This document shows, in pieces, positions 813 to 22,140 of a stretch of DNA of 22,140 nucleotides. This stretch comes from Candidatus Undinarchaeota archaeon (GTDB lineage: Archaea > SpSt-1190), in contig CAYVAH010000012.1 of the NCBI GenBank assembly GCA_964449215.1, positions 1-22,140 of the forward strand. Reading direction: 5' to 3'. Position 1 is the first letter of the stretch. Every line of letters starts with the position of its first letter. A program made the translations under genes and the position numbers. The notes under the pieces were generated by a model. That model ran no database searches and was not told the origin of the DNA. It saw only the letters and a list, made by a program, of their open reading frames with translations.

Positions 813-861
813 AAGATTTTTCATCGTCACCCTTCGGGCTCCTCGAAAAACCTTGACCAAA
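812..861. repeat. tRNA-abutting hairpin element CAAG-ATTTTTC...GAAAAA-CCTTG-ACCAAA
   Basis: Imperfect inverted repeat with a central CCC-TTC-GGG hairpin (GAA loop on the minus strand). Shares CTTGACCAAA with 21793-21802. Confidence 0.6.
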
Positions 862-1991: not shown

Positions 1992-2168
1992 GTGGTGTTT
2001 ATCCACACCGTAGGCTTCCTGGGCAGGCTCCTCTGCAGAATTGGAATCCATAAGTGGAGCAAAGCGAGGGTTTGGTTCCACTTTGATTCAAACGTGATGG
2101 ACAAGGAGTTCATCTGCCGCCGGTGCGGAAAAAGGAAGAGGAAGTCAGTGCCTGTGAAGGGCGAATAG
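1992..2168 (+). CDS. Small Cys/His protein (58 aa), DUF1660-like
   Basis: Below the track cutoff. MVFIHTVGFLGRLLCRIGIHKWSKARVWFHFDSNVMDKEFICRRCGKRKRKSVPVKGE, with an LLCxxGxHKW...CxRCG pattern. Confidence 0.7.
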   Translation: MVFIHTVGFLGRLLCRIGIHKWSKARVWFHFDSNVMDKEFICRRCGKRKRKSVPVKGE

Positions 2169-2226
2169 TTTGCGTGCAAAGCCCCGGCGGTCGGAAGCAA
2201 TTTAAATTAGCACGTATAACTTCCCT

Positions 2227-2685
2227 GTGGAGAACCCCGCCGGACTCTATAAGACTTCGACGGTGATTCTTTCCATATTATTGGTAGTATTTGCAGCATT
2301 ATATTTTACGGGAACAACTCTAGATAACACTCCTACAACAGAAAAAGCTATGTTAGTTCCTTTTGTGACAGAATGGGGATACAATCCGTATAACGAAGAC
2401 GAAGTTCTGTTCAACGTCATTGTTTACAATTATGGTTACTCAGAAGCCAGGAACATATACGTTAAGTGTGAGTTGTATGAAGTAACTGAAGAAGGTGCCT
2501 TAATTAATACATCACCTATTGTTCATTCAACACAAAAAATATCAAATTTGGCATCCACGTCTTACAGTAAAGAACAACTGAGTGCTTCAGGGGGCAACCA
2601 GTTAAAAGAGGATTCCTACTACATGTCTCTCTGTGAAATAGTCTCTTGTGACAACTGTGAAATTCTTGATGACAGAATAACTTGA
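2227..2685 (+). CDS. Membrane-anchored hypothetical surface protein, copy 1
   Basis: N-terminal TM helix, beta-rich domain (VIVYNYGYSEARNIYVKCELY), C-terminal CEIVSCDNC. AT-rich. TTTAAATT box about 25 nt upstream. Confidence 0.8.
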   Translation: MENPAGLYKTSTVILSILLVVFAALYFTGTTLDNTPTTEKAMLVPFVTEWGYNPYNEDEVLFNVIVYNYGYSEARNIYVKCELYEVTEEGALINTSPIVHSTQKISNLASTSYSKEQLSASGGNQLKEDSYYMSLCEIVSCDNCEILDDRIT

Positions 2686-2782
2686 ATTTTTATGCAAAAG
2701 GAGTACTTTTTGTGCAGAATCTAGTTTGCGTGCAAAGCCCCGGCGGTCGGAAGCAATTTAAATTAGCACGTATAACTTCCCT

Positions 2783-3241
2783 GTGGAGAACCCCGCCGGA
2801 CTCTATAAGACTTCGACGGTGATTCTTTCCATATTATTGGTAGTATTTGCAGCATTATATTTTACGGGAACAACTCTAGATAACACTCCTACAACAGAAA
2901 AAGCTATGTTAGTTCCTTTTGTGACAGAATGGGGATACAATCCGTATAACGAAGACGAAGTTCTGTTCAACGTCATTGTTTACAATTATGGTTACTCAGA
3001 AGCCAGGAACATATACGTTAAGTGTGAGTTGTATGAAGTAACTGAAGAAGGTGCCTTAATTAATACATCACCTATTGTTCATTCAACACAAAAAATATCA
3101 AATTTGGCATCCACGTCTTACAGTAAAGAACAACTGAGTGCTTCAGGGGGCAACCAGTTAAAAGAGGATTCCTACTACATGTCTCTCTGTGAAATAGTCT
3201 CTTGTGACAACTGTGAAATTCTTGATGACAGAATAACTTGA
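2783..3241 (+). CDS. Membrane-anchored hypothetical surface protein, copy 2 (identical)
   Basis: Same translation as 2227..2685. Confidence 0.75.
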   Translation: MENPAGLYKTSTVILSILLVVFAALYFTGTTLDNTPTTEKAMLVPFVTEWGYNPYNEDEVLFNVIVYNYGYSEARNIYVKCELYEVTEEGALINTSPIVHSTQKISNLASTSYSKEQLSASGGNQLKEDSYYMSLCEIVSCDNCEILDDRIT

Positions 3242-3341
3242 ATTTTTATGCAAAAGGAGTACTTTTTGTGCAGAATCTAGTTTGCGTGCAAAGCCCCGGC
3301 GGTCGGAACCTTTATATACTGTAACCACCAAGGAGTAGTTT

Positions 3342-3974: not shown

Positions 3975-4021
3975 AGGCTCAAAATGTAGCTGGGAATTTC
4001 GTCCATTGTTTCCCATTCTTC
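3971..4021 (-). repeat. Orphaned duplicate of the 3' end of gene 6792..7379 (att-like)
   Basis: Encodes EEWETMDEIPSYILSL* versus EEWETMDEIPSYILSP* at 6792-6842. A 26-bp identical core lies at 3996-4021 and 6817-6842. Confidence 0.9.
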
Positions 4022-5492: not shown

Positions 5493-6665
5493 TCAGGGCG
5501 CCGAAGGCAGCCCAAATCCTGTTGCGGTGTCGTCACCTGCAGTCCATATATCGGTTGAAACAGATTGCAGATATTCGCGAGTTGTATCTGCGCTTCCCTG
5601 CCAGAGCTTGGCAGCCAGTCCGCTTATGTGCGGTGTCGCCATTGAAGTCCCTGACATAGTGGTGTAGCATCCGTCGTTGTTGGTTGAATAGATGCTGACT
5701 CCGGGTGCTCCGAATTCAACTTCATTCTCTTCAACCACATAGTCTCCGTCGTTAATACCACGGGATGACCAGTCAGGCACATTGTCACTGGAGTCCGTTG
5801 CTCCAACTGCAATCACCTTGTGATAGGCTGCTGGGTAGTCTATGCTTCCGTCTGCGGGTCCATCGTTGCCGGCGGCTGCGACCACCATAACGCCATTGGA
5901 AACAGCGTAGTCAATAGCAGCCAGGACCTGGCTGTCAGGGGTGTTGCCTCCAATACTCATGGAGGTTATGTTCGCCCCGTTGTCGGTTGCATAGTAGATG
6001 CCTGCTGATATGTCGTCACCGTAGCAGTTGCCCCGCCTGTCACAGACTTTCACTGCAATCAGACCAGCTTCCGGAGCTACGCCGTAGATACCTAAACCGT
6101 CTGTGCCTCCGTTGGCCAAGATATTCCCACTACATGGGTGCCGTGCCCGTGAAAGTCCTCGCAGCTTTTTCTGTCGGGGGAAAGTGCGTCACCTTCGACA
6201 CGCATCTGAGGATGTTGCCGGACAGGTCCAGATGGCCCTGGTTGACCCCTGTGTCAAGAACTGCAACTACTGTTCCTGCTCCGCCGGAGCCGCCATTCAC
6301 TCTCTCAACACCCCATGGGTACTGATCTGAGGGATAGCAACTCCTTTCTTCAGGGGTGGGTTCTTCGTGGTTATTCTTGCAGTCGGCGCAGCTGGGTTTT
6401 CACCGAGTTCCGATTCACAAACACCGTTGTTGTTGCAGAACGGTTTGGTGATGCTAAAAATCCCCACCGGTTCCGTTTCAATTCCCAATACTTCCAAGGC
6501 CCTAAGCTGTCCCTGATTCAGTTCCGCTGAGAAGGCTCCGGGGAAGTTGTGCACGGAGCCGAATATGGCCCGGACCACCCTGCTGTCAGTTTTGACATAG
6601 TAACGGTCGGCCATAACCGGAACGGCCAGAAACACGAAAGCAAAAACAATTGAAAGTTTCTTCAT
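5493..6665 (-). pseudogene. Secreted S8 (subtilisin-like) serine protease, frameshifted
   Basis: Signal peptide MKKLSIVFAF from 6665. VAVLDTG, HGTHV and GTSMATPH lie in successive frames. Three apparent 1-bp deletions near 6394, 6178 and 6123. Confidence 0.9.
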
Positions 6666-6791
6666 ATATTTTACAGGAGACATCAGCTTAAAAAAAACTT
6701 TCAAAAAACTGATTTTGACACGGTTGAGCCGGCAAAACACTGTCTTTTTGTATCAGCATTAGAAGGGGGTCTGGGTCCCTCTCTAAACTCC

Positions 6792-7379
6792 TTACGGGCT
6801 TAAAATGTAACTTGGGATTTCGTCCATTGTTTCCCATTCTTCAATCTTCCCGTCCCCGTTGATGACAACGCGGTAATATTTTCCCTCGCCGTCCTTCAAG
6901 TAGATGGCCCAGTGCTTGAACTCCTTTTTGCTCGCCACGAGCTTGGTCCTTTTGCCCGTGACCTTTTTTATGTGCTCTTTGGCAATCTTCTCGGCCTTGT
7001 CAACGTCAAGACCGAACCTGACCCGTTCGATGTATTTCCTCCTCTCCTCCTCGATCCCGAGCATCCTTTCCTTTTTCCAGGTTTTGTAGAGCTGGTCCAG
7101 TATTATTCCCACCGCCCCAGCGACCAGCAATGCTGTCCCGACCCGGACATAGAGCTGGGTCCATGTCTGGAAAGGTGCCAGGAAAGGAATGCGGCTGGAG
7201 AGGAACACAACAAGCAGGAGTATGGCACCGACAATTGTGAGGAGCAGCGACACCCCGAACAGCCCCTTTTGCCAGAACCACCTGCCGCTTTTTCTCAGCC
7301 GGACGCTGAGCCACAGCAAAATCAGGAAACCCAGCAGGGCGACAAGGACCGTTTCAATCGCGACCACAACATTCCCCAC
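6792..7379 (-). CDS. Hypothetical membrane protein, 3 TM plus a possible PepSY-like C-terminal domain
   Basis: Three hydrophobic helices, then DKAEKIAKEH...WAIYL...YYRVVINGDGKI. Confidence 0.8.
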   Translation of the reverse strand: MGNVVVAIETVLVALLGFLILLWLSVRLRKSGRWFWQKGLFGVSLLLTIVGAILLLVVFLSSRIPFLAPFQTWTQLYVRVGTALLVAGAVGIILDQLYKTWKKERMLGIEEERRKYIERVRFGLDVDKAEKIAKEHIKKVTGKRTKLVASKKEFKHWAIYLKDGEGKYYRVVINGDGKIEEWETMDEIPSYILSP

Positions 7380-21609: not shown

Positions 21610-21681
21610 GCCAGGGTGGCCGAGTAGCGAGGCGGCAGACTGCAGATCTGCTTTACACGGGTGCAAATCCCGTCCCTGGCT
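21610..21681 (+). tRNA. tRNA-Cys(GCA)
   Basis: GCCAGGG...CCCTGGC-T acceptor stem with U73. Anticodon arm GCAGA-CTGCAGA-TCTGC. Confidence 0.95.
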
Positions 21682-21704
21682 CGCAGCCTTTGAAAGGTTG
21701 ATTG

Positions 21705-21776
21705 GGGCCGGTGGTCTAGTGGAATGACGCCAGCTTCGCAAGTTGGAGGTCGGGGGTTCGACTCCCCCCCGGTCCA
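21705..21776 (+). tRNA. tRNA-Ala(CGC)
   Basis: GGGCCGG/CCGGTCC acceptor stem with G3:U70. Anticodon loop TTCGCAA. Confidence 0.96.
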
Positions 21777-21804
21777 TCAAGCTTTAACAAGGCTTGACCA
21801 AAAA
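21777..21804. repeat. tRNA-abutting hairpin element TCAAGCTTT-AAC-AAGGCTTGA-CCAAAA
   Basis: Inverted repeat starting immediately after the tRNA-Ala discriminator. Related to 812-861. Confidence 0.6.
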
Positions 21805-21807
21805 CCT

Positions 21808-21862
21808 GGTGTCCGAAGGACACTCTAATGCGGATCAACCGGGCACCGGTTGGCATCAACGA
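21808..21862 (+). repeat. Two-hairpin structured repeat, copy A
   Basis: GGTGTCC-GAA-GGACACT, then CTAATGCGGAT, then CAACCGG-GCA-CCGGTTG, then GCATCAACGA. Confidence 0.85.
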
Positions 21863-21894
21863 AACCGAGCGGGTCCCGAGCGAAGGGTTGAGTT

Positions 21895-21979
21895 GCGGGG
21901 GTGCCGGAGTCAGGTCAAACGGGCTGGATTCAGGCTCCAGTGGCTAGTGCCTGCGAGGGTTCAAATCCCTCCCCCCGCA
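21895..21979 (+). tRNA. tRNA-Leu(CAG)
   Basis: GCGGGGG/CCCCCGC-A acceptor stem. Anticodon arm CTGGA-TTCAGGC-TCCAG, long variable arm. Confidence 0.96.
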
Positions 21980-22069
21980 CTCCGCGCATCTCAAAGCAAC
22001 TGTTCGAACGGAGTTCGAGAGGCCCCACGAGCCGCTGCTCGTGTGGGAGGGTGGAGCGAAGCAAAAATG

Positions 22070-22124
22070 AGGGTGCCGGAGGCACCCTAATGCGGATCAA
22101 CCGAGCATCGGTTGCCGTCAACGA
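22070..22124 (+). repeat. Two-hairpin structured repeat, copy B
   Basis: GGGTGCC-GGA-GGCACCC, then TAATGCGGAT, then CAACCGA-GCA-TCGGTTG, then CCGTCAACGA. Confidence 0.85.
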
Positions 22125-22140
22125 TTTCGCGACGAGGCGA

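Follow-up and report, generated by a model that had tools for sequence, protein, structure and literature searches.

A cluster of tRNA genes in which a two-hairpin repeat stands on either side of one gene raises the question of what the repeat is: an RNA module of the tRNA precursor, a site recognized in single-stranded DNA (ssDNA), or part of something larger. The window analysed here is the whole of contig C12 (22,140 bp), which belongs to a 94.9% complete archaeal genome of 787,686 bp (49 contigs); at least one fifth of the sampled words of this genome occur in each of six public DNA runs, all labelled as hydrothermal vent metagenome, and no RNA run was among those listed. An initial annotation had placed two repeat copies around tRNA-Leu, and both were recovered there as a 42-nt direct repeat (21821-21862 and 22083-22124; 88% identity, spacing 262 nt) on either side of tRNA-Leu(CAG) (21895-21980), with the shared exact 17-mer at 21825-21841 and 22087-22103 and the shared TCAACGA tail at 21856-21862 and 22118-22124. 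The number of copies was larger than two, however, with more of them elsewhere in the genome. The twin-hairpin repeat is real, and it is one building block of a family of tiny, gene-less cassettes located at tRNA genes in a family of small archaea. The cassette family is apparently undescribed in print: no description was found in the open-access literature, which was the scope of the search, and no trace of a "tRIP" element was found in print.

The twin-hairpin repeat and its arrays

The cassettes have a common plan consisting of a box, an A-run, a GC-rich stem 1, a linker of 8 to 11 nt, stem 2 and a junction with the target. The features of the window are as follows.

21610..21682, plus strand: tRNA-Cys(GCA), first in the cluster (tRNA calling, Rfam)
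21684..21700, plus strand: degenerate box palindrome CAGCCTTT-GA-AAGGTTG between tRNA-Cys and tRNA-Ala, read by sequence and resembling the boxes of the family
21705..21776, plus strand: tRNA-Ala(CGC)
21778..21804, plus strand: box, an A/T-centred palindrome CAAGCTTT-AAC-AAGGCTTG, followed by ACCAAAAA; begins 2 nt past tRNA-Ala and is the terminal module family-wide
21808..21824, plus strand: stem 1, copy 1, with a C-GAA-G triloop
21825..21835, plus strand: linker, copy 1, of which the CGGAT core alone is well kept
21836..21852, plus strand: stem 2, copy 1, with a CAAC...GTTG frame and a GCA triloop
21853..21862, plus strand: hub CRTCAACG, a module joint
21863..21894, plus strand: further module, the end of which (GGTTGAGTT) directly abuts G1 of tRNA-Leu
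21895..21980, plus strand: tRNA-Leu(CAG)
21981..22069, plus strand: other modules of array 2, including an A-run
22004-22018, plus strand: array 2 hairpin TCGAAC-GGA-GTTCGA
22026-22043, plus strand: array 2 hairpin CACGAGC-CGCT-GCTCGTG
22056-22062, plus strand: array 2 mini-hairpin GCGAAGC
22070..22088, plus strand: stem 1, copy 2, with a C-GGA-G triloop
22089..22097, plus strand: linker, copy 2
22098..22114, plus strand: stem 2, copy 2, with a GCA triloop (GTA in sister contig L013)
22115..22140, plus strand: hub and start of the next frame, which in L013 ends GGTT at G1 of tRNA-Val(TAC)
818..857, minus strand: related box cassette with a CCGAAGG mini-hairpin inside; its end abuts G1 of tRNA-Met(CAT) (735-813)

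The last of these lies upstream of tRNA-Met(CAT) with a polarity opposite to that of the arrays at 21.8 kb. Elsewhere in the window, a perfect 556-bp tandem duplication (2166-3308) carries two identical 152-aa ORFs without a Pfam family and is either a recent event or an assembly artefact. A 46-nt repeat (3976-4021 and 6797-6842; 91% identity) overlaps the stop codons of two different genes, and a gene at 5493-6740, named subtilisin-like by resemblance, is apparently split into ORFs 6297-6740 and 5493-6119, a start resembling its own being located on C18. A long coding tandem repeat with units of about 114 nt was also noticed on C41 of the same genome.

Stem 1 does differ in sequence while staying paired, as had been claimed: copy 1 (GGTGTCC-GAA-GGACACT) has 6 Watson-Crick pairs and an outer G.T pair, compared with 8 pairs in copy 2 (AGGGTGCC-GGA-GGCACCCT). 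Stem 2 reads CAACCGG-GCA-CCGGTTG in copy 1 and CAACCGA-GCA-TCGGTTG in copy 2. The linker had been taken to be single-stranded, but the first two bases of the 17-mer are part of stem 1 in copy 2. None of 2000 resamples of the stretch 21777-22140 contained an exact repeat of 17 nt, the longest being 15 nt, and the whole window gave one of at least 17 nt in 3 of 100 resamples. Folding z-scores of the two copies were -3.4 and -4.6 as DNA, and -1.7 and -3.5 as RNA. The initial annotation had asked whether another tRNA gene comes after the window edge; in sister contig L013, tRNA-Val(TAC) lies 40 nt on and is followed by tandem copies of another cassette.

In the genome as a whole, the exact 17-mer occurs at 4 places, with 3 more at one mismatch, and stem 2 has 10 copies (one partial), 6 of which are preceded by stem 1; stem 1 without stem 2 was also seen. 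Iterated self-BLAST of the genome revealed 24 array regions (2489 bp), forming a dispersed intergenic mosaic of short palindromes, 13 of them within 300 bp of a called tRNA and 10 no more than 25 bp from the end of a contig, so that assemblies are interrupted by the arrays at tRNA genes. At CRTCAACG hubs the modules have been stacked and rearranged, with 23 of the 36 genome-wide matches to this motif falling in array sequence (2.2 kb). Joints that skip or reorder modules were found in contigs of 3 of 4 runs, these joints and the differences between sister assemblies being possibly assembly chimeras through repeats. The repeat, first described as a self-contained element, is better regarded as a module within larger mosaics, the stems of which also occur apart. 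As a point against mobility, none of the matches listed from 4 runs shows the window locus as an empty site. It was also noticed that tRNA-Arg(CCG) and tRNA-Arg(GCG) have a near-identical TATA-like box and array upstream (C36:5945-6165, C25:10101-10346; L010, L017) and that two Val genes likewise have flanking cassettes in common, which suggests locus duplication or conversion. Outside this genome, the 17-mer pattern was matched, at one mismatch each, in only 2 of the 100 other genomes scanned, and a metagenome motif scan yielded 17 loci, of which 10 belong to near-identical strains and the other 7 are unrelated matches that lack the flanking modules; the joined box-plus-stem-1 pattern had 0 matches in the genome-contig scan, and the matches of the viral motif scans were without array context.

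The swap from G:C to A:T in stem 2 had been put forward as evidence for selection. Among 13 distinct copies, taken from this genome and near-identical strains and including 4 without stem 1 and one shifted, the closing pair was A:T in 5, G:T in 4, A:C in 3 and G:C in 1, and the covariation score was 0.139 versus 0.133 in shuffles, 182 of 500 of which scored as high. Because its two sides assort freely, the swap is no evidence. Conservation of structure was supported instead by homologues in other genera with changes on both sides of both stems. A first covariance model, built on 9 copies and used to search 141 genomes, detected homologues of the module in 3 of 9 family genomes, such as GGATGCC-GGA-GGCATCC plus TAAACGA-GCA-TCGTTTA in G009 and a stem 2 with a GTA loop in G007. 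When 4 matches from relatives were included in the alignment, 7 of 14 pairs were altered on both sides and 97.7% of cells paired, and the cross-genus covariation score was reached by 0 of 500 shuffles; this alignment was fitted to the structure, its matches were selected by structure, and it covers 3 genomes of 2 genera. A second model extended the homologues to 5 of 9 family genomes with the same plan, i.e. box, A-run, stem 1, linker, stem 2 and a junction with a tRNA end or T-arm copy. Judged from these alignments, conservation of the two-hairpin structure across genera holds. The linker of the relatives keeps nothing beyond a CGGAT-like core, in some copies. The 17-mer, which had been called conserved, varies between copies and is largely replaced in relatives, and the same fate befell the proposed nick site TAATGCGGAT, which is replaced by TGAT, CGAT, GTGG or CTAG in other copies and largely lost in relatives. 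Model matches outside the family (R2, E 0.003-0.05, 10 of 140 genomes) were at about chance level, the 7 that were inspected lacking stem 2 or lying inside genes. Comparison with Rfam (Rfam 15) agreed with the designation as an undescribed element, as only tRNAs exceeded the gathering score, and at E up to 10 there were sub-threshold matches only, with no ribozyme among them.

Docking sites, the box and the search for a mobilizer

Cassettes dock at G1, after position 72/73, in the T-arm and in the D-loop of tRNA genes, and their units end in tetranucleotides of the GTTG/CTTG type at the base of the target stem; the cassette ends themselves have, in some cassettes, only short CAAG...CTTG-type sequences. 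At 41 distinct tRNA loci, arrays on the 5' side end in GGTT/GCTT-type letters at G1 and those on the 3' side show AACC/AAGC-TTT after position 72, so that the junctions have a two-fold symmetry about the acceptor stem; the junction letters come from inspection by eye, and a start site would likewise be expected to have a T at -1. Many cassettes are flanked on one side by an intact tRNA and on the other by 15-34 nt copied from the end of that tRNA. A duplicated end was found within 450 bp of the gene for 7 of the 40 tRNA genes in this genome and its sister contigs, and family-wide, in a sample enriched for box loci, 36 duplications were counted among 145 tRNA sequences, with lengths of 15-34 nt, one of 69, and inserts of 33-251 nt. 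Also against mobility, no duplicated ends were found at the Ala, Leu and Val genes of the window cluster, and an intact tRNA accompanied by a displaced end fragment was thus seen at 7 of 40 genes but not at the window's own locus.

Targets other than tRNA genes were also observed: 1) a ribosomal-protein gene has a 24-nt copy of its start together with the ribosome-binding site, and at C11:9208-9341 and at the C11/C19 join the cassettes are bracketed by copies of ribosome-binding site and start codon, 2) cassettes are located right after paired C/D-box-like units (GTGATGA...CTGA; L025, C5:10400-10750; L339; L357), which are likely to be unannotated C/D small RNAs and are conserved in three genomes, and 3) in genome G001 the box lies within anticodon-loop insertions of Thr(CGT)-like and Arg(CCT)-like tRNA genes (L310:300-415, L315:90-215). 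These insertions are possible cassette-derived introns; one of the two folds with two 3-nt bulges 6 bp apart and the other without a clear motif, which does not establish a bulge-helix-bulge.

The most widely shared part of the element is the box palindrome at 21778-21804. Its 3' half was found in 10 of 10 family genomes, in 1-26 copies each and with 0 in the control; outside the family, 1 of 7 genomes from the phylum has it. In 60 regions fetched from six relatives there were 70 boxes, 46 of them within 250 bp of a called tRNA. For the 67 boxes with a clear partner arm, one outer pair was CG in 54, GC in 9, TA in 2 and other in 2, and the other outer pair was AT in 50, GC in 13, CG in 3 and other in 1; by these counts the two outer pairs covary. 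The box is also a dispersed bacterial repeat with at least 125 loci, Clostridia and Anaerolineae predominating among the matches listed, and five bacterial genomes (G101-G105) carry 11-194 copies each. There, 0 of 138 loci among the matches listed were close to a tRNA, 45 of these loci having short flanks only. Of 122 bacterial boxes, 16 were preceded by a hairpin with a TNC loop, 62 by one with another triloop, 27 by one with a larger loop and 17 by no hairpin; no protein common to the neighbourhoods of bacterial boxes was found, and 2 of the 5 box-rich bacterial genomes have a Y1 gene. The likeness of the archaeal and bacterial boxes may reflect either common descent or convergence. A box motif scan of viral contigs gave 9 loci, 0 near a tRNA. 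Five related viral contigs (L226, L228-L231) share the region in which the box lies, close to a gene which we take to resemble those for DUF932-type proteins.

Searches for a mobilizing enzyme covered genomes that were all incomplete. Y1 HUH transposase (PF01797) was found in 0 of 17 genomes (72-99% complete), and Y2 transposase (PF04986) in 0 of 17, a search of unproven sensitivity since the control exceeded the cut-off in 0 of 14. Tyrosine integrase was not detected in this genome and was present in 1 of 10 family genomes; with no tyrosine recombinase detected here, no XerA-like gene was detected either. Reverse transcriptase (PF00078), Cas1 (PF01867), TnpB and IS110 were likewise absent from this genome. 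A solo 92-aa GIY-YIG gene occurs in it, as in 4 of 10 family genomes overall, with no tRNA or array beside the gene. A regular expression for the HUH motif gave 13 candidates among 3735 open frames, and the three examined comprised a complex I subunit, a membrane protein of Cache-type appearance and one without a family. Because no mobilizer was found, mobility is argued from the duplications and the mosaicism only.

DNA or RNA folding and the possible explanations

Among perfect triloop hairpins with a stem of at least 6 bp, GNA/TNC loops account for 14 of 18 within 300 bp of a tRNA versus 31 of 208 elsewhere. Orientation was possible for 18 of the 24 array regions, and there GNA loops prevail on one strand: stems of at least 5 bp carry 14 GNA loops, 2 TNC loops, 4 other triloops and 3 GNRA tetraloops, compared with a mean of 0.2 GNA loops in shuffles (maximum, 3). 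The loops vary at N only (GAA, GGA, GCA, GTA); C-G closes 30 of 35 GNA loops, these being copies and not independent events, and the commonest loop is CGAAG (21 of 35), whereas stem 2 has another closing pair than the favoured C-G. The GC-rich triloop hairpins of relatives have GNA/TNC loops in 23 of 31 cases. Mini-hairpins of the GCGNAGC type are described as extraordinarily stable DNA structures, and the RNA counterpart tested in the same work (an 8-mer) as much weaker (PMC13037366). Substitutions outside the closing pair of stem 2 are G.T-compatible in 4 of 4 cases, which suits RNA equally with DNA. The cassettes nevertheless look built for folding as ssDNA rather than as RNA, and this is the reading we favour. 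Between the two functions first proposed, an ssDNA site and an RNA module in a tRNA precursor, the GNA triloops thus favour the former and the latter is disfavoured.

Taken together, the cassettes are probably non-autonomous units that fold as ssDNA and are copied into the ends or arms of structured genes, mostly tRNA genes. The folded substrate would be the strand with the GNA loops. A nick at the base of the target stem would allow the cassette to be copied in while 15-34 nt of the target are re-copied, later recombination between copies at the hubs would shuffle the modules, and template switching may keep the stems paired. RNase P and 3' trimming would remove the insert from the mature tRNA, and in the proposed mechanism the site would thereby be harmless. 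An unrecognized HUH-type protein acting in trans, or the host repair/priming machinery, would be candidate enzymes.

That the module serves the tRNA precursor as RNA, whether as a processing aid, terminator, promoter-proximal structure or small ribozyme, is quite unlikely. The stems do fold as RNA too, and 7 of 10 copies of stem 2 lie on the tRNA strand upstream of G1 and run into it; stem 1 with a T-run is terminator-like on the minus strand (3 sites versus 0.9 in shuffles), and the A/T centre of the box lies at TATA distance before some tRNAs. Yet 2 further copies of stem 2 run antisense into a 3'-end copy and 1 into a C/D-box-like unit, antisense copies also exist in relatives, the loops are triloops rather than GNRA/UNCG tetraloops, and most tRNA genes lack the module. 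Transcription of the three antisense arrays is possible, as they lie directly past stop codons of the same strand. No ribozyme family appeared at E up to 10, nor is a ribozyme needed for freeing 5' ends, since RNase P RNA and Rpp29 are present together with a partial match to PIN_5; the same finding ruled out the idea of leaderless tRNAs with a ribozyme replacing RNase P. An explanation by benefit to the host, in which the hairpins are ssDNA signals (ssi/primase sites or SSB-free marks) that aid the restart of replication or repair where tRNA genes are heavily transcribed, and that spread through gene conversion and not as selfish inserts, is also unlikely. It would suit the prevalence of CGAAG loops, the occurrence of CCGAAGG in plasmid ssiA and of GCGGAGC in the phage N4 promoter (PMC13037366), and the presence of the box in all ten family genomes with no control matches. 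However, such a signal does not need target duplications or insertions within tRNA copies, and the copy number ranges from 1 to 26 per genome. Arrays point in both directions on single contigs (C12, C36, C2), which rules out replichore polarity in this genome and argues against a replichore-linked route.

Decayed attachment sites of tyrosine-integrase islands or proviruses once present in these tRNA genes would explain why an intact tRNA is accompanied by a displaced end fragment, which is the island signature (PMC4383910), and a 1.8-kb insert of this kind with a recombinase is known in Caldiarchaeum (PMC3293823). We regard this origin as very improbable, as the inserts are gene-less and of 33-251 nt, this genome has no detected integrase and only 1 of 10 family genomes has one, the same modules are shared by many isotypes, by the two ends of tRNA genes and by non-tRNA sites, and none of the 9 viral box loci was near a tRNA. 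Template switching perfects palindromes. A neutral by-product of this process beside tRNA cloverleaves, with no protein recognition, would explain why the two sides of the stem 2 closing pair assort freely, why stem 1 can carry an extra, symmetric T-A pair and why the loop of one copy is inverted (TCC for GGA), all of which template switching gives; it is nonetheless barely credible, since 5 of 9 related genomes repeat both the plan and the loop class, and distant bacteria carry this box sequence as a high-copy repeat.

The preferred reading of non-autonomous ssDNA cassettes can be carried further, to distinct transposase-free elements that read the shape of structured-RNA genes in DNA, make long target duplications and have a terminal box common to archaea and bacteria; this is possible, although we consider it doubtful. 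The shapes read would then include the acceptor stem, T-arm, D-loop, anticodon loop and C/D boxes, and elements landing after position 37 would become tRNA introns and so provide a route of intron arrival. Such a route is called open for Asgard archaea in a 2026 preprint (10.64898/2026.10.13.758758). The box-bearing anticodon-loop insertions offer a testable route to new tRNA introns and to partial tRNA copies. More generally, a 0.79-Mb genome with none of the seven mobilizer families searched still remodels its tRNA loci by folded DNA cassettes, which points to an unrecognized ssDNA-processing activity or to host repair as the mobilizer, and the module is a small, defined substrate for finding that activity. 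The arrays can also be mistaken for structured RNAs.

Comparison with known systems

REP/BIME sequences with RAYT (TnpA-REP), including CGTC-tagged ones, are likewise intergenic, modular, GC-rich short hairpins in reshuffled mosaic arrays (PMC3733652, PMC6006769), and CGTC occurs in the cassette hub. A REP is defined by a GTAG/GTGG or CGTC tag 0-2 nt before a hairpin of 7-20 bp (PMC6006769), whereas in the cassettes a tag before the hairpin was found in 0 cases (18 oriented regions, both strands), 17 of 17 genomes have no detected Y1 gene, and docking is at tRNA termini with duplications of 15-34 nt. The NTS/SRM repeats of Ssn nucleases are directional ssDNA hairpin repeats like the cassettes (PMC11893778), and this genome has its solo GIY-YIG gene; in contrast, the SRM consensus occurs 0 times in the arrays and 6 times genome-wide, and the GIY-YIG gene, present in 4 of 10 family genomes, is not flanked by repeats here. 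Haloquadratum MITEs, SMRs and PATEs are small, transposase-free archaeal repeats, also like the cassettes (PMC3119063). SMR-A inserts into palindromes by an unknown route, but SMRs, unlike the cassettes, make no target duplication, and PATEs derive from IS605 ends (PMC3119063), while no Y1 or TnpB was detected in this genome. The cassette duplications are variable in length (15-34 nt, one of 69), which differs from the short, fixed-length duplications that a cognate transposase determines for MITEs.

Regarding IS91, the cassette junctions CTTG, CTCG, CTTC and CTGG, located at the ends of hairpins, match its target/cleavage spectrum, and tandem amplification fits rolling-circle read-through (PMC13181058). 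However, IS91 makes no target duplication (PMC13181058) whereas duplications accompany the cassettes, and no Y2 was detected in 17 of 17 genomes; the match is a resemblance only. Tyrosine-integrase islands in tRNA genes leave the tRNA intact with a 5' or 3' fragment of it displaced, as seen here (PMC4383910, PMC3293823), but the cassettes have no integrase, are far below the 2-kb floor, and use many isotypes as well as non-tRNA targets. Casposon/CRISPR-like integration calls for a Cas1-family integrase, and retroelements (retron, DGR) for a reverse transcriptase, neither of which was detected in this genome. The DNA mini-hairpins of ssiA, the phage G4 origin and the N4 promoter have the same C-GNA-G motifs (CCGAAGG, GCGAAGC, GCGGAGC), but are single functional plasmid or phage sites (PMC13037366), whereas the cassettes are dispersed mosaics at tRNA genes. 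The cassettes thus behave like passengers of the REP/BIME or MITE type, yet differ from them in tag, enzyme and target duplication.
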